Source: a virus
Taxonomy: Duplodnaviria; Caudoviricetes
Length of the DNA: 64,000 bases
Direction: 5' to 3' (one strand)
Virus record (IMG/VR): IMGVR_UViG_3300025759_000062
Coordinates: 1-64,000 of that record
Shown here: piece after piece, positions 1 to 22,355 of the stretch
Position numbering within the stretch: the stretch's first letter is position 1
How the letters are laid out: each line of letters starts with the position of its first letter
Made by a program: the position numbers and the translations under genes
Notes under the pieces: model-generated
Seen by the model: the letters and a program-made list of their open reading frames with translations, nothing else
Databases searched by the model: none
Told to the model about the DNA's origin: nothing

Positions 1-293
1 CATTTCTCTTTTGTTTTAATTGGTGTAAAATTCCTTCTTTAACTGCTTAAATACTCGTTAATGATGCAAATAAGCAGCATTCAATCTGCTTAAATAAACA
101 TTATCTCTCTTTGGTTTTAAAGGTTTTTATATGTTGTTTCGTATAATTTGATTTCTTTTCCCATCATTATATGCCTTAACATCCTTTAATGGTGGGACTT
201 CCCATCATCTCATTTGATATGTTATGTTGTACCATTTGAGATGTTATCCGTATTTATACGCTTATATACTTTACACTTTGAGTGCTTTTAATT

Positions 294-497
294 TTACACT
301 TTGGTTTTAAAGGTTTTGTCATACCAATGGCTAATAGCAAATTCATCTGCTGCCATTAGATTACGACACTTATAAGCGAAGTCAACCATCACCTTTTCTT
401 CTTTCTCAAGCAAGTCTGTATTTAGCATCCAAGATTTAAAGTCTGCATCACTCATTAAATTGAAGTTCTCATAAACTTCTTGCATTGGTGTTTTCAT
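294..497 (-). CDS. Hypothetical protein (67 aa) ending KTFKTKV
   Basis: ORF track; starts and ends in copies of the junction repeat. Confidence 0.8.
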   Translation of the reverse strand: MKTPMQEVYENFNLMSDADFKSWMLNTDLLEKEEKVMVDFAYKCRNLMAADEFAISHWYDKTFKTKV

Positions 498-625
498 CTC
501 TCTTTGGTGTTAAAGAATTCAGATAAGTCATCATATAAAGATATAATTTCATTATCAGTTAGTTCACTAACTTGCTGCATTAACGAAGCTCTTAATAACT
601 CTGTTTCTTTATTGTTATCACTCAT
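494..625 (-). CDS. Hypothetical protein (43 aa, MSDNNKETELL...FFNTKER)
   Basis: Read manually; ATGA overlap with the 294..497 start; bounded by junction repeats. Confidence 0.75.
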   Translation of the reverse strand: MSDNNKETELLRASLMQQVSELTDNEIISLYDDLSEFFNTKER

Positions 626-673
626 TTCTCTTTGGTGTTAAAGGTTTACCCTTACTTTGTGAAAATTTAAGGT

Positions 674-808
674 TCATTGTTGTGAGGATTTGTGATGTTC
701 ATCTTTTACTTCTTCCTTGTCATACATATAGCTTAGGAAACTTATCATCCCAAGGGTTGATAAGCCTCCTGCTACTGCAATCATTAATAATAATATCCAA
801 TCCATCAT
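674..808 (-). CDS. Small membrane protein (44 aa, MMDWILLLMIAVAGG...)
   Basis: Read manually; ATGA overlap with the stop of 805..1020; one hydrophobic helix followed by a charged tail. Confidence 0.7.
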   Translation of the reverse strand: MMDWILLLMIAVAGGLSTLGMISFLSYMYDKEEVKDEHHKSSQQ

Positions 809-1020
809 TTAAATCTTAAACTTCCTTCTACTGATACAAAGTCTTGTGCACATCTATCACATGAATAGTTATGCTTTGTCATTTGAATAAGCATTGACTC
901 TGTGCAATTAGGGCACAGTTCATTTGTTTTGTATACAGGATATACATCATACATATTTTGTAGATCCATACTTTCTTTTTGTTGCTCTTCTATGAAGAGC
1001 TCTTTCATTCTTCCCATCAT
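805..1020 (-). CDS. Small zinc-ribbon protein
   Basis: CPNC...CDRC pairs; TAATG coupling to the helicase gene. Confidence 0.75.
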   Translation of the reverse strand: MMGRMKELFIEEQQKESMDLQNMYDVYPVYKTNELCPNCTESMLIQMTKHNYSCDRCAQDFVSVEGSLRFK

Positions 1021-2117
1021 TACTCTAAAGGGTTATAGTATTTAATCTTACTCTGATCAAATCCCTTTAGAGCCTTTTCTACCCAATACTCATCTTGTGT
1101 ACCTTTATAACATAGTACATGACAAGTAGCTGTCTCTGTTGGATTTAATCTTAACAAACGGCCAATACGTTGTGCCGTCTTTCTCTCATTACCATACGCA
1201 TGCATGATAATTCCCTGCTTTAGATTAGGTATAGTAACACCTTCACTAAGCTGGAGTACACAAGACATTTTATCTATGCGTCCATCACTAAATAATTCAA
1301 AGTTTTCCTCAGACTTAGGATTGTTAGAATGATAGGAATGTCTGCAGATTCTATCTGCTTGGTCCTGGGTGTTTGCAAATACAATGCATTTAGAACTAAT
1401 GTTGGATAGAATAGATTTGACATATGCCTCTTTACTTGTATAGTCCATAAGAGCTCTCATCCGCATAATAGAAGCAAACTGTTTTTGCTTTGGTGTATTA
1501 GCTTCTTTAACTCTATTGTCTACATATAGATAATCTCTGTATTCTGATGTATACCAGTGACCGCCTTTCTTATTTTTCTTTTTATAAGTTGGTGTTTTAT
1601 CTAATAGCAGGTAATGAACTACAATTTTATAATCATTAAGAATATTGTTATCAGTAGCATCATCTACAGAGAACTCATACTTAATAGGACAGTACTTTTG
1701 CACCATTCTATACTTTTCTGTACCCTTACGTACTGGTGGTGTACCAGTGAGACCAAGAATCTTACCTGAATAAGCAGTTAAGAATGATTCATGGTTCTCT
1801 AGCAAACTATGACACTCATCTAAGTATACAAGCTGATATTCCATTGGATTATGCTTGTTAATAGATAAGTAAGTTGTAAAGGTAAAGTGTGGTTGTAAAT
1901 GTTCAAGATCCATCTTTTCAAGCTCAGTAAGCCAGGCTTCTTTGATAGATAGTTTTGGTATTACAACCAGTGCTTTTATAAATGGATCATAATTCTTTTG
2001 AAAATGTTGAATTGCAATACGTGTTTTACCTACACCCATTGATATTCCTAATCCACAACGGTTATATTCTAATGATGTTTCTAATGCTTTTGATTGTACT
2101 ACTTCTCTATGTGTCAT
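1020..2117 (-). CDS. Superfamily 2 (DExH) helicase, UvsW/ResIII-like
   Basis: Walker A GVGKT, Walker B DECH, motif III GLTGTP, motif VI QRIGRLLR. Confidence 0.92.
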   Translation of the reverse strand: MTHREVVQSKALETSLEYNRCGLGISMGVGKTRIAIQHFQKNYDPFIKALVVIPKLSIKEAWLTELEKMDLEHLQPHFTFTTYLSINKHNPMEYQLVYLDECHSLLENHESFLTAYSGKILGLTGTPPVRKGTEKYRMVQKYCPIKYEFSVDDATDNNILNDYKIVVHYLLLDKTPTYKKKNKKGGHWYTSEYRDYLYVDNRVKEANTPKQKQFASIMRMRALMDYTSKEAYVKSILSNISSKCIVFANTQDQADRICRHSYHSNNPKSEENFELFSDGRIDKMSCVLQLSEGVTIPNLKQGIIMHAYGNERKTAQRIGRLLRLNPTETATCHVLCYKGTQDEYWVEKALKGFDQSKIKYYNPLE

Positions 2118-2118
2118 T

Positions 2119-2325
2119 TTAAAATGTTAACCATTTTAATCTTCTTTGATATTTTCTGATTAAAACAGCATTGTTATTTAGATGTTTTGTAACTCCTTTA
2201 GACCAATTTGATTCTACTTCTGCTCTTATAACAGTATTAATGGTATCAAAGTGTAATTTATGTAGATAATCTCTTACATAATTAAGATGTCTTCTCTTTT
2301 TAAATAAATTTTTAATTCTTTTCAT
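2119..2325 (-). CDS. Hypothetical basic protein
   Basis: ORF track; abuts the helicase start. Confidence 0.7.
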   Translation of the reverse strand: MKRIKNLFKKRRHLNYVRDYLHKLHFDTINTVIRAEVESNWSKGVTKHLNNNAVLIRKYQRRLKWLTF

Positions 2326-2350
2326 AACAAAATGTTTAGTGAAACATAGG

Positions 2351-2424
2351 TGCTCCCTACAGGGCTTGAACCTGTGACCTACTGATTATGAGTCAGTTGC
2401 TCTGACCAACTGAGCTAAGAGAGC
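2351..2424 (-). tRNA. tRNA with CAT anticodon (probably Ile2, possibly elongator Met)
   Basis: Cloverleaf GCTCTCT..., D arm TAGCTCAGTTGGTCAGAGC, anticodon arm ACTGA-CTCATAA-TCAGT, T loop GGTTCAAG; no encoded CCA; lacks initiator features. Confidence 0.9.
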
Positions 2425-2428
2425 TAAG

Positions 2429-2514
2429 TAGCCGGAGTGGGACTTGAACCCACACGGGTATTACTACCCAACAGATTTTAAGTCTGTCATGTCTACCACT
2501 TCCATCATCCGGCC
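2429..2514 (-). tRNA. tRNA-Leu(TAA)
   Basis: Acceptor GGCCGGA/TCCGGCT, anticodon arm ACAGA-CTTAAAA-TCTGT, long variable arm GGGTA..TACCC, T loop GGTTCAAGTCC. Confidence 0.93.
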
Positions 2515-2520
2515 ATCTAG

Positions 2521-2594
<74 letters not shown>

Positions 2595-2601
2595 AATGTT
2601 G

Positions 2602-2826
2602 TTAATCTATATTCTTCTTCCAGAATCTAGTGTATTTACCATTCTCCTCAATAATAATGATGTTTCCGTGTATATCCACAACAGTAATTGTGTCAACTCT
2701 CTCAAAATTTTCTTGATGTTTATTCTCAACGTACTCATGATCTTGAAATAATACTACAATTGTACCTACAATTATAATCATTATAAGAGACCATAAAGTA
2801 AATTTAAATAAGCTTTCCTTATCCAT
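2602..2826 (-). CDS. Small single-pass membrane protein
   Basis: N-terminal hydrophobic helix FTLWSLIMIIIVGTIVVLF. Confidence 0.75.
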   Translation of the reverse strand: MDKESLFKFTLWSLIMIIIVGTIVVLFQDHEYVENKHQENFERVDTITVVDIHGNIIIIEENGKYTRFWKKNID

Positions 2827-3230
2827 TAGTCTATTCTTTTTTCAGAAAACCCAAGTTCTTCTGCTTCAGCCGGATGTTCCTCTATATACATATGACAGTG
2901 TCTACATACAGATAGCCAAGTACTAACCATAAGATGATATTGACCTCTGCCTTTTTTGTGATGAACATCTGTTGACTGCCCTGTACATCCAGGTAATGCA
3001 GCTTCACACATTGGTTTCTCCTCCATAAACTTTTTTCTAAGTTTACTGTAAGCTAAATCAATGATTTGCATTGTCTTAGACTTCTTGTTGATTGGTTTTC
3101 TTTTAAGTGGTTTATTTTCTTGCCTATACTTATACCAGCAATTCTTGCAATACCGGCTACCTTTATCATTTTTCCAGATAAACTGCTCAGTATTGCAATT
3201 ATTGCATAGTTTCTTTTTCTTCTCAATCAT
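2826..3230 (-). CDS. Zn-binding HNH-like (NinG-like) endonuclease
   Basis: N-terminal CxxC pairs; CEAALPGC...DVHHKKGR...CRHCH pattern. Confidence 0.7.
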   Translation of the reverse strand: MIEKKKKLCNNCNTEQFIWKNDKGSRYCKNCWYKYRQENKPLKRKPINKKSKTMQIIDLAYSKLRKKFMEEKPMCEAALPGCTGQSTDVHHKKGRGQYHLMVSTWLSVCRHCHMYIEEHPAEAEELGFSEKRID

Positions 3231-3739
3231 TTTACAGTCAAAAAGTTTTTGGGCAATAAGCCTTTCTTCATGTAGAATAAGATTAAATCTTCATAAGTTA
3301 AACCAAGATCTTTAAAACTTAGTTTGTTTACATATGTAGGATCTATTTCATCTACAGGGATAGAATTAATCTGTCTTCCTAGCTCTGTGGTGTTAAAGAT
3401 ACTAAAAATTTGCATAGCTTTTTTGTTAGTAATTACTTGCTTCCAAGCATTTACCTCTCTTTGTCCACGTTGCCAGACTTTTTTGATTCTTCTTTTCTTA
3501 TCCCAATGAAGTTTACTCACTTGTTCAGGAGTATAAACATTTAAACCGTGCAACACTCTTTTGAATAAGAAGTGCTGTGTTGGATTGAGTTTAGTGTAAT
3601 CTAAACGTTGTGCTATAAGTTCAGGTTGAGTTTGATACTCACTCAGTATACCCAAGTACTCATAACGTTCTTTGCGTGCTTGTAATTCAGCTATTTGCTG
3701 CTCAAGCTTAAGGATTTGTTTTTGTTCATTAGAAAGCAT
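3227..3739 (-). CDS. Hypothetical phage protein (170 aa)
   Basis: ORF track; ATGA overlap with the downstream gene. Confidence 0.85.
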   Translation of the reverse strand: MLSNEQKQILKLEQQIAELQARKERYEYLGILSEYQTQPELIAQRLDYTKLNPTQHFLFKRVLHGLNVYTPEQVSKLHWDKKRRIKKVWQRGQREVNAWKQVITNKKAMQIFSIFNTTELGRQINSIPVDEIDPTYVNKLSFKDLGLTYEDLILFYMKKGLLPKNFLTVK

Positions 3740-3766
3740 GTTTAAGTATATTAATTAGGTGAAAAT

Positions 3767-3797
3767 AAAAAGAGGGCCGGTATTTCTACCAGCCCTC
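3767..3797 (-). terminator. Rho-independent terminator
   Basis: Minus strand GAGGGCTGGT-AGAAAT-ACCGGCCCTC followed by TTTTT. Confidence 0.8.
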
Positions 3798-3869
3798 ATA
3801 AAAGGTTTACTCTAAGCGCGCTGTTCCCTGTATTATTTCAACAGTTGGTGGGAAGCGGAGTAAACGTGT

Positions 3870-4442
3870 TTATAACTCAAAAGTGGCATCCTCTAGTTCT
3901 TCTTCTACCACTTCTTCTTCAGCTTCAGCTTGAACCTCTGCTATTGAGTCTTCAAGATCCACTTGCTTATCATTCTCAAATGCTTCTTCTACAGTAGCAT
4001 TTTTGATTTTATTACCATTATCTTCATTATTTGCTTCACGGATTGCATCACCATTATCGTGTGCTACAAGTACATCCTCTGCTCCTGTATCAGCAGTGTA
4101 CATTGTTTTCCTATAAATAGGTTGTCCGTCTTGGCAACAAATGATACCAGTATTACCAGCAATCTTAAGATCTCTATCAGGATCATTGTTGCTAAATGGC
4201 TCTAATGATTCTCTAATTACAATCTTACCTGGTAATTCTTTCATGTTTTGAATACCCATTTCTCTTAGGTCTTCAACTTTACCGTGTAATAGTGTACTAA
4301 CTGTTTTACGGCTTACCCATCCTGTGTTACCAAAAGTCACTCTTTCTTGTTGTAGTCTTACATGACCATACTCACTGTTGTTTTGAGACACACGGATTAC
4401 GCTCCCTAATTCATCAGGGATAATTTGAACTTTGTTTTGCAT
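3870..4442 (-). CDS. Putative single-stranded DNA-binding protein
   Basis: Beta-rich N-terminal domain plus a very acidic tail ending in FEL, the usual SSB architecture; function inferred. Confidence 0.5.
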   Translation of the reverse strand: MQNKVQIIPDELGSVIRVSQNNSEYGHVRLQQERVTFGNTGWVSRKTVSTLLHGKVEDLREMGIQNMKELPGKIVIRESLEPFSNNDPDRDLKIAGNTGIICCQDGQPIYRKTMYTADTGAEDVLVAHDNGDAIREANNEDNGNKIKNATVEEAFENDKQVDLEDSIAEVQAEAEEEVVEEELEDATFEL

Positions 4443-14031: not shown

Positions 14032-14313
14032 ATGAAAACAAGAATAGTTCCCGTAGGGAAAAAGGTTCTAATAAAACCTAAAGAAGCACAAAGAACAATA
14101 CCAGGTACTAGTATTATAATTCCAGATTCAGCATTAGAAAAAGTTTATCAAGGTTATGTAATAGCCGTGGGTGCTGAAGTAGAAGAGATCAAGATAGGAA
14201 ATCTTATTCAATATGCTGATTACTGTGTACCAACTGAAATGAAACATGAAGGAGAAGATCATTACTTGATTAATGCAGGTGATGTATTTGCAGTAATTGA
14301 GACTATTGATTAA
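14032..14313 (+). CDS. groES: Co-chaperonin GroES (Cpn10)
   Basis: IVPVGKKVLIKP...IIIPDSA..GYVIAVG...IKIGNLI...LINAGDVFAVI. Confidence 0.85.
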   Translation: MKTRIVPVGKKVLIKPKEAQRTIPGTSIIIPDSALEKVYQGYVIAVGAEVEEIKIGNLIQYADYCVPTEMKHEGEDHYLINAGDVFAVIETID

Positions 14314-16502
14314 TGTTTATTGAAATCCCAACATATAAATCCGGAGTATGGACAACCACTTCTTTTGAAACAAGAGAAGACTTCACTGATTTTATATTTT
14401 CTATATTTAAAGAACCGGGATTATATAACTTCAATGAAACAGCTTTTTTGTTTAATCAAGAAGCTAGAAACTTCAACAAAGATGGTTTTTATTGTGGTGC
14501 TCCTTTTAGATCTAGGGATTTTATAAACTACTGGGATGATCAAAAGAATAAATGCCGTGTAGGAGTTATTTACAAAGATAAATCTAATACATGGTTTCTT
14601 ACCAGAGATTATTACATGTGGTTAAACTTTCTTCCAATCTATGATAAAGAAGAGAAGAAGTATGGTTTTGCTAAAGTAAGGGATGCTCAATATCATATGG
14701 CTCTTTATGAGCTATTAGCTGAGCTTAACTATAAGCACTCTGCTATTCTAAAGAAACGTCAGATTGCATCCTCTTACTTTCACATGGGTAAGATTATTAA
14801 TACGTACTGGTTTGAAGAAGGTAGTACGTGTAAAATTGGTGCATCACTAAAAGATTATATAAATGATAAAGGCTCATGGAAGTTCCTAGATGAATATAAG
14901 ACATTTCTTAATGAGCATACTGCCTGGTATAGGCCCAGTAACCCAGAGAAAGTTCTATTGTGGCAACAACAGATTGAGGTGAAAGTTGGCAATAGAAAAA
15001 CATCTAGAGGTCTTAAATCTAAAATACAGGGTGCTTCCTTTGAGAAAAACGCTACAACGGGTGTAGGTGGTCCAACAACTTACTTCTTTCATGAGGAGGC
15101 AGGTATTGCACCTAAGATGATGCAGACCTATGAGTATTTACGTCCTGCAATGTCATCAGGCATGGTTACAACTGGTATGTTCATAGCAGCTGGTTCTGTG
15201 GGTGATCTGGATCAGTGTGAACCTCTTAAGGATATGATACTAAATCCTACAGCAAATGATATATATGCTGTAGAAACTAATTTAATGGATGCTGATGGTA
15301 CAATCAACATGGCTGGTTTGTTTATACCAGAACAATGGTCTATGCCACCACACATTGATAAGTATGGTAATTCACTTATAGAACAAGCATTAGAAGCTAT
15401 TAGATTAGAAAGAAAGAAATGGAAAGCTGATCTTAATCCAGAACAATATCAATTACGTATTTCACAGAAACCAACTAATATTGCTGAAGCTTTTGCTTAT
15501 AGAAAAGAATCTGTTTTTCCACAAGGTATATTATCTAAACAACTTAAGAAGATTGAAGACAAAGAGTATGCATATGAGCATATTGAACTTGAAAGAACGC
15601 AAGCAGGAATAGAAGCAAAGCGTTCACAGAAACTTCCTATATCAGAGTTTCCTGTAAATAAAAAAGCACAGGATAAAACTGGTTGTTTAGTTGTATGGGA
15701 AAGACCTGTAGCTAATCCTGAGTTTGGTGCTTATTATGCTTCTATTGACCCCGTATCAGAAGGTAAGACAACTACATCAGATTCTTTGTGTAGCATATTT
15801 GTTTATAAGAATTCTGTAGAGATTACAAGAGAAACTCCAGCTGGATTAGAGCAGTTTATTGAACCAGCCAAAATTGTAGCTGCCTGGTGTGGTAGATATG
15901 ATGATATCAATAAAACACATGAGCAGTTAGAGTTAATTATAGAATGGTATAATGCTTGGACTCTTGTTGAGAATAACATATCTCTTTTTATACAGCACAT
16001 GATTGCCAAGAAGAAACAAAAATATCTTGTACCTAAACAACAGATTTTGTTTTTAAAAGATCTAGGTAGTAATAGAACCGTATATCAAGAATACGGCTGG
16101 AAGAATACTGGTACTTTATTTAAAAGTCATTTGATATCTTATGCAATTGAGTTCCTTAGAGAAGAGATTGATATAGAAACAGATCAAGATGGTAATGTAT
16201 TAAGTAATACTTTAGGTATTGAAAGAATACCAGATCCTATGCTTCTAAAAGAAATGTTAGCTTATTACCCTGGGTTAAACGTGGATAGATTGGTGGCTTT
16301 CTCTGCTTTGGTAGCTTTTGCCAAAATTCAAGAGTCAAACCGTGGATATTTGAAAAGAAGAGAGTCAGAATCAGATAATTCCTTGGATAATTCAAAAAAT
16401 TTGTATAAATTAAAGTATAGTCCGTTTAAAAATTTAGGCCGGGGTAAAACTAGTATTGGTGGTAAAAAAATTAAAAGGTCTGCCTACAAAAATTTTAGAT
16501 AA
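14313..16502 (+). CDS. terL: Terminase large subunit
   Basis: Walker A region LKKRQIASS, Walker B FFHEEAG, nuclease ASIDPV...DS, LVENN, NVDRLVA; directly upstream of the portal gene. Confidence 0.92.
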   Translation: MFIEIPTYKSGVWTTTSFETREDFTDFIFSIFKEPGLYNFNETAFLFNQEARNFNKDGFYCGAPFRSRDFINYWDDQKNKCRVGVIYKDKSNTWFLTRDYYMWLNFLPIYDKEEKKYGFAKVRDAQYHMALYELLAELNYKHSAILKKRQIASSYFHMGKIINTYWFEEGSTCKIGASLKDYINDKGSWKFLDEYKTFLNEHTAWYRPSNPEKVLLWQQQIEVKVGNRKTSRGLKSKIQGASFEKNATTGVGGPTTYFFHEEAGIAPKMMQTYEYLRPAMSSGMVTTGMFIAAGSVGDLDQCEPLKDMILNPTANDIYAVETNLMDADGTINMAGLFIPEQWSMPPHIDKYGNSLIEQALEAIRLERKKWKADLNPEQYQLRISQKPTNIAEAFAYRKESVFPQGILSKQLKKIEDKEYAYEHIELERTQAGIEAKRSQKLPISEFPVNKKAQDKTGCLVVWERPVANPEFGAYYASIDPVSEGKTTTSDSLCSIFVYKNSVEITRETPAGLEQFIEPAKIVAAWCGRYDDINKTHEQLELIIEWYNAWTLVENNISLFIQHMIAKKKQKYLVPKQQILFLKDLGSNRTVYQEYGWKNTGTLFKSHLISYAIEFLREEIDIETDQDGNVLSNTLGIERIPDPMLLKEMLAYYPGLNVDRLVAFSALVAFAKIQESNRGYLKRRESESDNSLDNSKNLYKLKYSPFKNLGRGKTSIGGKKIKRSAYKNFR

Positions 16503-20738: not shown

Positions 20739-22355
20739 ATGGCAACTCCTGTATTAAACAATGGAATTTTCCTAAGAGATACTGCCTACAAAGCAAGCTC
20801 TCATATTGATTCTTATCACCTTACCCAGATGCTTGGTTCTGCTGAGCCTATGGATATGGGACCAGTTGATCTTTGGGCTATGACCCAAAAGGTAGAAATG
20901 CCTTTGTATCAAATGGCTTCTTTTGGTGGAAAGAATACAATCTTAGTAGACAACGCACGTGGGGAGTACAAATGGCAAACTCCTATTGCTCAAGATCTAC
21001 CATTCGTGGTGGCTGATATTGAGCCTGCAAATGATGAAAAGGGTATTGATGGTACTACCTTTAAGATCAAGCTTTCTAAGAGAGCATTTGGTCACGGTGA
21101 CATCATTACTTATGACAAGTACAACGGTTTGGAATTGTACGTTACTGCTGATGATATTATCCCAGCTGGTGACGGATTTATCTACACTGTACAGCTTGTA
21201 AACAACAACAGTGCTTCTTCATTGGATAATGCTTACCTAGCATCTGGAACTAAATTCTTTAGAAAAGGTTCTGCACGTGGTGAGTACGGTGAAAGATTCT
21301 CTGACATTGAAACTGGATCTGGTTTCAGAGAGTTCTACAACTTTGTTGGTGGAGCTGAAGCACACGTACACTACTCTGTATCTAGCCGTGCTGATCTTAT
21401 GATCAAAGGTGGTTTGAATGCTGACGGTACTGTACCTGTAACTGAGATCTGGAGAAACTTTGATGAAAGCGGTAACCCATCTGTATCTTCTATTGAAGAA
21501 TTAGTAGCTAGCATGGGTAAAGCTGGAGCTAGAGATGCATTTGAAAGTGGTAAACTTTCTAGAACTTTTGTTACTAATTTGGAAGCTGCTCACTTGAGCA
21601 AGATTGCAAATGACATTGAAACTTACCTCATGTGGGGTAAAGGTGGTAAGGTTAAGCAAGATGGACCAGATGATATTAGATTGTCTGTTGGTCTTTGGTC
21701 ACAGTTGGATAACTCATTCAAGAGAGTATACAACAAATCTGCTTTCTCTCTTGACATGTTCAAATCAGAACTATACAACTTCTACCAAGGTAAAGTTGAG
21801 TTCAAAGGACCGGACCCACAGAGACAACTTGTTGTACAAACTGGTATTGGTGGTATGCAATTAATCAACAAAGCTATTGCTGATGAAGTATACGGATCAG
21901 GTCTTGTACAGAATGCATCTGACATTGGTGCAGTTACTGGTCAGGGAATGGATCTTGACTTTGGTTTTGCTTACACAAGCTTTACTATTCCATTCTTAGC
22001 TAACGTTAAGTTTGTTCTTAACCCAGCGTTTGATAACCTTCACACTAATGATGTTGAGAATCCATTGATTGATGGAAGACCATTGAGCTCTTACAGCTTT
22101 ATCATCTTTGATGTGACTGAGAACGGTAATGATAACATTCACTTGTTGAAGTTGTCATGGGATAACCAATTGAAGTGGTTCTACCAAAATGGTACTATGG
22201 ACTACATGGGAAGAACGCAAGGATTTGCATCTTCTGGTAACTTCAATGGTTACAGAGTATACATGACTCAAACCATGCCAGCTGTATGGGTTAAAGACCC
22301 AACTAAAGTTCTTAAGATTGTAATGAGAAATCCTGTTACAGGAGGATCATTCTAA
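20739..22355 (+). CDS. Major capsid protein (crAss-like)
   Basis: 538 aa; synteny; biased codon usage suggesting high expression; YLMWGKGG, GLWSQL, TQTMPAVWVKDPTK; strong terminator follows. Confidence 0.88.
   Translation: MATPVLNNGIFLRDTAYKASSHIDSYHLTQMLGSAEPMDMGPVDLWAMTQKVEMPLYQMASFGGKNTILVDNARGEYKWQTPIAQDLPFVVADIEPANDEKGIDGTTFKIKLSKRAFGHGDIITYDKYNGLELYVTADDIIPAGDGFIYTVQLVNNNSASSLDNAYLASGTKFFRKGSARGEYGERFSDIETGSGFREFYNFVGGAEAHVHYSVSSRADLMIKGGLNADGTVPVTEIWRNFDESGNPSVSSIEELVASMGKAGARDAFESGKLSRTFVTNLEAAHLSKIANDIETYLMWGKGGKVKQDGPDDIRLSVGLWSQLDNSFKRVYNKSAFSLDMFKSELYNFYQGKVEFKGPDPQRQLVVQTGIGGMQLINKAIADEVYGSGLVQNASDIGAVTGQGMDLDFGFAYTSFTIPFLANVKFVLNPAFDNLHTNDVENPLIDGRPLSSYSFIIFDVTENGNDNIHLLKLSWDNQLKWFYQNGTMDYMGRTQGFASSGNFNGYRVYMTQTMPAVWVKDPTKVLKIVMRNPVTGGSF

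Follow-up and report, generated by a model that had tools for sequence, protein, structure and literature searches.

The first 650 bases of a crAss-like phage genome raise a simple question: why does one short sequence recur there, always on the same strand, among small open reading frames (ORFs) and noncoding modules? The window analyzed here, 64,000 nt of DNA, is the beginning of a single contig of 117,277 bp (IMG/VR record IMGVR_UViG_3300025759_000062) that CheckV rates as complete and that has no terminal repeat. We lean, somewhat more than we doubt, toward the answer that the recurring element is a phage-borne joint at which translation would stop and restart without a Shine-Dalgarno sequence, and that the same element would also act as a recombination handle between micro-genes.

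A start-codon motif recurs in the small-ORF array

On direct reading, the motif AAACCTTTAAMACCAAAGAGARATG is present five times on the minus strand of the first 650 bases (Table 1). This agrees with the original prediction, made from the sequence of the window alone, which had counted one degenerate copy among the five; a sixth copy lies at the opposite end of the contig. The consensus is approximately 20 to 25 nt long (TTTAAMACCAAAGAGAR-ATG-A, usually with AAACC in front), and the 3′ two-thirds of the motif (TAAMACCAAAGAGARATG) are its best-kept part. The two ORFs said to end in FFNTKER and KTFKTKV were found as described (494-625 and 294-497), and an ATGA at 497-494 in copy 2 joins the stop of the first, which encodes 43 aa, to the start of the second, which encodes 67 aa. 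Copy 3 is fused to a AAAGTGTAA box, and relative L027 carries a full motif and another gene at the same place. The ATG of copy 4 opens only three codons (MFI, followed by a stop).

A scan with a 16-mer, allowing up to three mismatches, returned 11 matches against 4.41 expected, a number reached in 0 of 100 shuffles. The four exact 16-mer matches are all on the minus strand and all within positions 1 to 647, and the 14-base 3′ half of the motif has three exact occurrences in the whole 117,277-bp genome, all inside the array. Throughout the genome, good copies are confined to this small-ORF array, where all six are on the minus strand. The original prediction had named an equal frequency of the motif inside core genes as a result that would refute it; we found one partial resemblance there, CTTTAACACCACAGAG at 3383-3398. 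This site was rejected as a functional copy or a fusion scar, since it lies in a conserved core gene and the homologous site varies among relatives, and it is best explained as a chance or partial resemblance.

The array was also predicted to continue past the left edge of the window, and it does so by wrapping around onto the other contig end, because two relatives carry both end regions on one piece: in L133 they lie within 2.5 kb of each other, and L166 aligns across the junction. When the contig is closed, the ATG at 3-1 begins an ORF of 13 codons (MKKEIETFNTKER, followed by a stop) that terminates in copy 6, beyond which lie a 20-aa ORF, a 28-aa membrane-like ORF, and then a conserved 128-aa gene. 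The array is therefore bordered by conserved genes on both sides, those for the helicase and a Zn-ribbon protein on one and the 128-aa gene on the other.

The motif coincides with gene starts and ends incoming reading frames

The relation of the motif to neighboring genes was assessed on a set of 265 unique copies with at most two mismatches in the 20-nt core. In agreement with the predicted supply of start codons, an ORF of at least 30 aa follows the motif ATG in 215 of 251 assessable copies (median length, 55 aa), compared with 482 of 1,286 random ATGs in the same sequences (median, 18 aa). Several of the ORFs shorter than 30 aa behind the motif also belong to recurrent families, for example a 20-aa peptide of the form M-K-x...LCxRD...NGIE.., which is found after copy 6 as well. 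The base after the ATG is A in 255 of the 265 copies (447 of 860 at non-motif ORF starts), and ATGA thus belongs to the motif.

The motif also ends upstream ORFs, as had been proposed: two of the three incoming frames stop inside it. Upstream ORFs of at least 30 codons enter 110 copies in frame 0, in which the motif reads TFNTKE(K/R), with the TGA of ATGA as the stop codon in 107 cases. In frame 2, upstream ORFs enter 59 copies and stop at TAA, and in frame 1, which is stopless, they enter 27. No upstream ORF enters 99 of the 265 copies; these follow tRNA genes, a double AAAGTGTAA box, a double TAGGCGCA box, a GTAAGG..CCTTAC hairpin, or TTGACA.

The frame 0 reading raises the possibility that the element is a protein feature, a C-terminal ...TFNTKE(K/R) shared by paralogous small proteins, of which the DNA repeat would be a by-product. 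The 107 copies that end an upstream ORF in this frame, many of them within a longer ...YYNETFNTKEK, are compatible with this explanation, as is a gene family (MKTPMQE) whose members often both begin and end at a motif. However, the explanation is largely refuted by the frame counts, that is, by the 99 copies without an upstream ORF, the 59 in the TAA frame, and the 27 in the stopless frame. Moreover, the most variable motif sites are nonsynonymous in frame 0, and variation is not concentrated at synonymous positions, copies follow tRNA genes and noncoding boxes, and the best-kept part, ATG and the A after it, belongs to the next gene. Given the frame counts and the distribution of variation, we conclude that conservation acts at the nucleotide level and that the peptide tail is the by-product; a shared protein tail as the cause is given next to no credence.

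The motif is spread across unrelated phages and is nearly absent from cellular genomes

The exact 22-mer was detected in at least 125 IMG/VR stretches. Among the matches listed, 80 stretches lie on 77 contigs, all of which are at least 4 kb long. The flanks of the motif at these loci are very diverse on both sides, and only 31 of the 125 loci encode, within ±2 kb, a protein shared with the genome studied here. Carriers include a 63.6-kb fragment (G004) with 21 copies, 21 of 21 on one strand; a 212-kb contig with three copies; a 100.9-kb contig; a complete 63-kb contig; and a 114.6-kb contig. Of these five records, only the 100.9-kb contig encodes a relative of the large terminase subunit (TerL) of this phage (33% identity). 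Relatives of the 43- and 67-aa cassettes were found in records of 30, 37.6, and 51 kb (80, 99, and 85% complete, respectively), all without the TerL and DNA polymerase of this phage. Among 40 relatives of the helicase, the motif was present only in the four closest with downstream sequence (L127, L128, L133, and L143; 77 to 95% aa identity). The distribution among helicase relatives and the records without a related terminase indicate that the motif is not a lineage trait.

In contrast to this spread, the 20-mer was detected in only 14 stretches among 185,579 prokaryote genomes. Four metagenome-assembled genomes (MAGs), classified as Flavobacteriaceae, Flavobacteriales, and Saprospiraceae, carry two to four copies each, with all copies on a single contig. 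These multicopy MAG matches, together with helicase relatives in Flavobacterium, Cellulophaga, and Bacteroides crAss-like phages, make a Bacteroidota host likely for this phage on sequence grounds. The motif was absent from 50,697 cultured-phage records (31-nt query), and blastn of positions 1 to 4000 against the cultured-phage database returned tRNA matches only.

Two contigs among these matches are of note. On a 1.47-Mb contig of a Winogradskyella isolate genome (L182), one exact 20-mer coincides with the beginning of a full-length pdxJ gene (Pfam PdxJ, E = 4e-88), a host housekeeping gene; this copy may be due to chance, or it may be a sign that host ribosomes can use the motif. The two copies on a 248-kb contig from a Flavobacteriaceae MAG, which may be of phage or host origin, have mixed neighbors: an amidase with a peptidoglycan-binding domain, a type IX secretion system sorting-domain protein, a glycosyltransferase, and an M23 peptidase.

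Homology between loci breaks at the motif

A check suggested with the original prediction was whether breakpoints of gene gain and loss in relatives fall in the motif. Pairs of copies with a homologous flank (at least 60 nt) share the upstream flank only in 101 cases, the downstream flank only in 78, and both in 5. At a threshold of at least 90% identity over 100 nt, the corresponding numbers are 45, 37, and 5, or 82 one-sided pairs. Nineteen of the 265 copies have both an upstream-only and a downstream-only partner at 90% identity or more, including copy 2 of the window, whose junction (495-514) matches one partner upstream only, at 95% identity, and others downstream only, at 91%. In an all-versus-all blastn comparison, 23.4% of 4,982 informative alignment ends fell no more than 12 nt from a motif copy, a zone that makes up 3.75% of the sequence. 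The fraction of alignments that break at the motif ATG was 0.92 (1,121 ended and 95 crossed), compared with 0.65 at non-motif ORF starts (1,373 versus 747) and 0.32 at random positions (334 versus 724); the per-site mean was 0.87 at the motif and 0.51 at other gene starts.

Individual relatives display the same pattern at the level of whole units, and gene order is not kept among them. L143 is 95.6% identical over positions 1100 to 696 and then carries a noncoding module before, not after, the MKTPMQE gene; in L127, the 44-aa gene next to the array is missing and the Zn-ribbon gene is joined straight to the motif. We regard this pattern of shuffling as strong. The predicted absence of an integrase was likewise borne out: scans of 117 of the 118 predicted ORFs with PHROGs returned no integrase or recombinase family. 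The genome does encode other recombination genes, namely those for a Sak4-like annealing protein, an exonuclease VIII-like nuclease, and a RusA-like resolvase. Of the double role that had been proposed, initiation unit and homology handle, the supply of start codons and the coincidence with homology breaks were thus recovered, whereas the driving of translation and crossovers inside the motif are putative.

Exchange at the motif could also be driven by repair of cuts if the motif were the target of a homing-type nuclease. A length of 20 to 25 bp would suit such a site, HNH endonuclease genes are present in this genome (Table 1), and one motif copy in L050 precedes an HNH_3/NUMOD4 gene. Nevertheless, in a phage with 6 to 21 copies such a nuclease would make repeated cuts in its own genome, the arrays are not regularly accompanied by HNH genes (1 of 89 cargo families), and the strict link to ATG and the stops in two frames would be left unexplained. 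A homing site is therefore highly improbable.

The shuffling could instead be largely an artifact of assembly, with mis-joins or breaks at a 25- to 45-nt repeat, even if the motif itself is real. Every compared sequence is a metagenome assembly, and the locus is a systematic assembly breakpoint: the motif lies within 150 nt of a contig end in 27 of 80 IMG/VR loci among the matches listed, where at most about 6 would be expected. In one metagenome, contig depth in motif bins was 3270 and 1000 compared with 21.6 for the backbone (50 to 150 times the backbone in one run), and contigs and unitigs broke at every copy. Such breakage explains why the contig of the window ends inside the array, and some joins could be chimeric. 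However, the motif is shorter than reads and than large assembler k-mers, which break rather than join at a repeat of this kind, and the excess of contig ends fits this behavior. The differences from L143, L127, and L133 span hundreds of bases, with whole modules present or absent, and diverse flanks of at least 20 letters stand on both sides at the unitig level. In the same metagenome, many contigs match the motif alone and diverge on both sides, which indicates many contexts in one sample. We consider it improbable that assembly accounts for most of the shuffling. Several near-complete relatives of 100 to 123 kb end a few hundred bases past the helicase.

The motif as a possible Bacteroidia-type initiation region

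Bacteroidia ribosomes do not use Shine-Dalgarno sequences, and in Flavobacterium johnsoniae initiation is favored by low structure and by A at positions 0, −3, −6, −12, and −13 (PMC6847099). The motif has A at −1, −2, −4, −6 to −8, −11, −13, and −14, but G at −3; position −12 is C, or A in 41 of 265 copies. The predicted unpaired probability from −20 to +10 was 0.588 for motif starts (n = 237), 0.530 for non-motif starts (n = 250), and 0.470 for random positions, and the difference between motif and non-motif starts was significant (Mann-Whitney, p = 2e-7).

Two structural candidates were rejected. A 4-bp CUUU/AAAG hairpin in the motif RNA was discarded, as CCTTT variants at the 5′ side are uncompensated and AAAG does not covary; no inverted-repeat arms and no covariation were found in the motif, and the fold of positions 600 to 700 gave a z score of 0.1. 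Pairing with 16S rRNA of the epsilon or TURBS-like kind was discarded as well: the energy with a Winogradskyella 16S fragment (approximately 488 to the end) was −14.7 kcal/mol, compared with −13.1 ± 2.1 for 300 shuffles, 20% of which were as good, and the duplex with the 16S 3′ tail reached −7.5, the same as shuffled sequences (−7.5).

The motif could alternatively be a promoter, or the core of one, that serves a phage or host RNA polymerase with very short leaders. T7-type promoters are about 23 bp long, and the promoters of single-subunit RNA polymerases are of a length and exactness similar to those of the motif. Some copies stand right after promoter-like boxes (double AAAGTGTAAAAT, double TAGGCGCA, or TTGACA). 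In addition, this crAss-like phage has giant ORFs of the kind that includes the virion RNA polymerase of phage phi14:2 (10.1101/2020.03.07.982082). On the other hand, the conserved block ends in ATG, so that a transcript starting downstream would lose the start codon, and an upstream ORF reads through 196 of the 265 copies. A consensus scan of positions 1 to 3000 for sigma-70-like sites found 17 sites against 14.4 expected, none of them on a motif copy; on direct reading, no TAnnTTTG-type Bacteroidetes −7 box was seen on the sense strand. Early transcripts of phi14:2 are reported to have no common upstream motif (10.1101/2020.03.07.982082), and the phages that carry the motif studied here differ greatly in size and type. 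A promoter is thus quite improbable.

A proposed stop-restart joint that would double as a crossover point

How the motif works is a matter we infer from these patterns; the observation of the motif itself is solid. The motif RNA would most likely be an unstructured, A-rich initiation region of the Bacteroidia type that lacks a Shine-Dalgarno sequence and promotes translation or reinitiation. It would halt upstream translation in two frames, with TAA as the stop in one and the TGA of ATGA as the stop in the other, such that the gene before the motif would end cleanly and the gene after it would start. With the same 20 to 25 letters between different ORFan micro-genes and noncoding modules in co-occurring phages, the shared identity would offer a preferred crossover point for homologous or single-strand-annealing recombination. 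Crossovers there could shuffle, insert, and delete cassettes without a site-specific recombinase, and the Sak4-like, exonuclease VIII-like, and RusA-like proteins would be at hand. Recombination within the motif, rather than selection of viable junctions, would then be the putative cause of the mosaicism.

A wider role can be imagined, in which the motif would serve as a universal plug among unrelated phages of the same Bacteroidota hosts. Short-homology swaps would draw on an integrase-free pool of cassettes, and each cassette would bring along a phage-specific initiation signal, unlike host starts, for Shine-Dalgarno-blind ribosomes. We put this forward tentatively, as an extension that we would sooner doubt than assert.

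Several observations weigh against a joint that is also a recombination handle. Short-read metagenome assemblies underlie all comparisons, and mis-joins at a 25- to 45-nt repeat could inflate the number of one-sided pairs; pair and alignment counts are, moreover, nonindependent events. Contig joints in run X1 (513/515 to 622, 125/126 to 494, 127 to 622, and 20 to 620) have sides of only 20 to 25 letters, which are the motif itself, and these joints consequently prove neither deletion nor circle. The A/C and A/G alternatives at the two variable positions inside the motif show no clean association with the flanking sequences on either side, so that they do not fix where within the motif a crossover would lie. 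With respect to distribution, the 36 of 40 helicase loci at 71% identity or less have no motif copy, and in the 3 of these 36 that were searched (L129, L139, and L144) no other repeated start motif was found, only two-copy, chance-like families. Host genomes almost never carry the motif, although an optimal host-type start region would sometimes occur there. As to translation, position −3 of the motif is G rather than A, and of the changes made in the F. johnsoniae reporter, A-3G did the most harm (PMC6847099). As to expression, an RNA-library contig spans positions 1 to 270, but a contig gives no information on strand or on where a transcript ends, and carried-over DNA may be its source.

The strongest competitor to the combined role is a motif that acts as an expression signal only, either a start region or a binding or cleavage site for a factor that controls small early or accessory genes, with junctions falling there because viable ones need gene borders. 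Factors of the latter sort exist: RegA and RegB of phage T4 act on early mRNAs. Selection that merely kept genes intact would be enough to put junctions at gene borders, and the non-motif gene starts of the same loci are frequent breakpoints as well (0.65), the region being mosaic throughout. The fixed place of the motif at an ATG, its strand consistency, and its confinement to the nonstructural small-ORF region are also accounted for, and the marker test placed no crossovers inside the motif. Against a pure expression signal, the break fraction is higher at the motif than at other gene starts of the same loci, both overall and per site. The same letters and homologous cassettes recur in phages that share neither terminase nor polymerase, which is hard to explain without exchange. 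A common trans-acting phage factor is not evident, with no search for one made. We judge expression alone to be unlikely, if still to be reckoned with, and retain the stop-restart joint with a recombination function as the preferred explanation.

Comparison with known phage and cassette systems

The closest parallels are found in two kinds of phage repeat. The promoter-early stem-loops (PeSLs) of T4-type phages have been called "mobile regulatory cassettes" (PMC2839356; PMC4122927). PeSLs are repeated short expression signals in hyperplastic regions, mostly just upstream of ORFans; they lie at the endpoints of insertions, deletions, and replacements between close relatives, as the motif does here (break fraction of 0.92; 82 one-sided pairs versus 5 two-sided); they were proposed to provide homology for recombination without a dedicated recombinase; and their mini-circles have been shown. 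A PeSL consists of a sigma-70-type promoter and a terminator stem-loop, followed by a Shine-Dalgarno sequence and a start codon (PMC2839356), whereas the motif has neither a promoter match nor a stem-loop. Unlike PeSLs, the motif reaches up to and contains the start codon, often forms the translated end of an upstream ORF, has stops in two frames, and is found letter for letter in unrelated phages whose hosts belong to a group that does without Shine-Dalgarno sequences.

The second parallel is the start-associated sequences (SAS/ESAS) of Cluster K mycobacteriophages (PMC3203893). These are asymmetric repeats in one orientation in the nonstructural part of the genome, right before the start codons of unrelated gene families, with a strong preference for ATG and sometimes with the upstream stop inside; they are absent from host genomes, and a role in translation initiation is suspected. 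The near absence of the motif from prokaryote genomes (14 stretches in 185,579) is comparable, as is its single orientation at the starts of unrelated genes in the nonstructural region. In contrast, SAS is a 13-bp sequence (GGGATAGGAGCCC) located 3 to 7 bp before the start, has an AGGAG Shine-Dalgarno core that the motif lacks, and is found in one phage cluster (PMC3203893). The motif is longer, includes ATG and A, extends across unrelated phages, and marks homology breakpoints, whereas no role in mosaic junctions is stated for SAS in the accessible part of PMC3203893. In function, then, the motif resembles both PeSLs and SAS and is a member of neither.

Two further systems are less similar. 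Boundary or linker sequences of lambdoid phages are short conserved sequences at gene borders that were proposed as sites of homologous exchange between unrelated modules; they are weakly conserved and are not known to be tied to start codons or to occur in tandem micro-gene arrays. The motif shares with them its shortness and its place at gene borders and differs in being tied to start codons and repeated in tandem. Integron arrays are tandem rows of small promoterless cassettes in one orientation, each with a repeated site, and require the tyrosine recombinase IntI and a folded attC site. The tandem small cassettes bounded by a repeated site and the strong difference in content between relatives recall integrons, but no integrase was found among the 117 ORFs scanned here, and the motif has no attC-like inverted repeats. 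Searches of the literature on crAss-like and Cellulophaga phage promoters, on PeSLs after 2015, and on boundary sequences, as well as searches for the literal motif strings, returned no description of the motif and nothing relevant.

Phage genomes are rich in small ORFans in hyperplastic regions, and the movement of such genes has been documented for few model groups, T4 with its PeSLs being an example. The motif provides a searchable sequence that marks junctions in uncultured freshwater, estuarine, and marine-type Bacteroidota phages of unrelated types. It can thus serve as a marker in metagenomes for accessory-gene arrays, which likely hold host takeover or antidefense genes, and as an explanation for assembly breaks at this locus in these phages. 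It is also a natural test case for start-site choice and for reinitiation after ATGA overlaps in Bacteroidia.

Conserved noncoding modules within the arrays

Two units that have no clean ORF, at 20-99 and 127-294, had been taken for decayed or empty cassettes. This interpretation was not upheld, as both are conserved noncoding modules. The last approximately 119 nt of the unit at 127-294 are 85 to 97% identical in five contigs (L143, L110, L086, L095, and L030), and the module is preceded by AAAGTGTAAAAT-type boxes in other contigs as it is here. The minimum free energy of positions 125 to 270 is −28.3 kcal/mol, compared with −16.2 ± 3.1 for shuffled sequences (z = −3.9; 0 of 200 shuffles). 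An alignment of the 125-303 module contained 0 compensatory base pairs, so that its structure is a predicted one. The module at 20-99 is 75 to 83% identical in at least nine loci (L111, L055, L114, L072, L045, L173, L166/L027, L007, and L071), and the fold of positions 1 to 130 has a z score of −2.0.

Both units have the appearance of regulatory or small-RNA modules that move together with the micro-genes of the arrays: the 125-303 module is a candidate small RNA or leader, and the 20-99 module may be a terminator or attenuator. Long intergenic RNAs are reported to rank among the most abundant transcripts of the crAss-like phage phi14:2 (10.1101/2020.03.07.982082).

Cassette cargo

Behind the motif, 161 proteins of at least 45 aa fall into 89 families, only a handful of which have a Pfam match. 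The largest is the MKTPMQE family, with 35 of the 161 proteins, to which the 67-aa ORF belongs. The first 20 to 21 nt of MKTPMQE genes (ATGAAAACACCAATGCAAGA; 478-497 here) are identical in many otherwise unrelated sequences and resemble the motif (ACACCAA-G), which gives this family a shared junction of approximately 45 nt; its N terminus may derive from a captured motif copy.

The 43-aa cassette, whose product has no PHROG match, recurs at 96% nucleotide identity in L193 and L194 and at 83% in L050, with different neighbors. L193 and L194 are short contigs in single-cell assemblies labeled Alphaproteobacteria and Marinimicrobia; phage DNA present in the sorted samples is a more probable source of the cassette there than the host cells. 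A micro-ORF of 20 to 27 aa also recurs right behind the motif. Here it encodes MKGVITLCQRDLDENGIEND (genome 117180-117242, minus strand), and elsewhere it reads MKD..LCNRD...NGIE.. (L040, L041, L053, L055, L067, and L119), a tiny-peptide family conserved across contigs.

Genome context

A long minus-strand replication block spans the contig ends, and both HNH genes lie in it (Table 1). The genome has giant ORFs of 4374, 1913, 1703, and 1520 aa; the latter two encode virion proteins. The 4374- and 1913-aa ORFs (genome 63818-83301) have no PHROG match, and giant ORFs of this kind are typical of crAss-like phages.

Table 1. Positions of motif copies, cassettes, noncoding modules, and other genes in the window; coordinates beyond the window are marked "genome."
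Feature	Position	Strand	Description
Motif copy 1	647-623 (ATG 625-623)	minus	AAACCTTTAACACCAAAGAGAAATG; perfect; starts the 43-aa ORF; no upstream ORF enters
Motif copy 2	519-495 (ATG 497-495)	minus	gaattcTTTAACACCAAAGAGAGATG; perfect 20-nt core TTTAACACCAAAGAGAGATG at 514-495
Motif copy 3	316-299, within 294-316	minus	AAACCTTTAAAACCAAAG; truncated after ...ACCAAAG, then TGTAA (stop 296-294); no ATG
Motif copy 4	126-99 (ATG 101-99)	minus	AAACCTTTAAAACCAAAGAGAGATAATG; three inserted bases (...GAGAGATAATG); TAATG overlap
Motif copy 5	30-1 (ATG 3-1)	minus	TTTTACACCAATTAAAACAAAAGAGAAATG; degenerate, with insertion
Motif copy 6	genome 117240-117264	minus	Perfect; 13 bases from the opposite contig end
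Partial look-alike	3383-3398	minus	CTTTAACACCACAGAG; one mismatch in 16; no ATG; inside a conserved 170-aa gene
43-aa ORFan cassette	494-625	minus	Ends ...FFNTKER and stop; last seven codons and stop are motif copy 2
67-aa ORF, MKTPMQE... family	294-497	minus	Ends ...HWYDKTFKTKV and stop
Conserved noncoding module	20-99	minus	Three TAAGCAG/CTGCTTA words; alternative hairpins 92-71 (then TTTG) or 77-41
Conserved noncoding module	125-303	minus	Double CAAAGTGTAAA box (about 302-269), then a structured stretch
44-aa membrane-like ORF	674-808	minus	Between the Zn-ribbon gene and copy 1; in L143 and L126; absent in L127
71-aa Zn-ribbon protein	805-1020	minus	Conserved left flank
Helicase	1020-2117	minus	Conserved left flank of the variable region (805-2117)
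tRNA genes Met-CAT, Leu-TAA, Arg-TCT	2349-2594	minus	Consecutive
HNH endonuclease genes	2826-3230 and genome 107891-109054		Replication block; one is 2.2 kb from the array
TerL	14313-16502		Portal gene after it
Major head protein	20739-22355		

An Rfam scan of positions 1 to 3000 found nothing besides the three tRNAs. In relatives L005 and L096, the 3′ end of a tRNA gene directly abuts the motif. The gene at 2119-2325, next after the tRNA genes, has no motif in this genome, and its protein family recurs in 18 motif loci.

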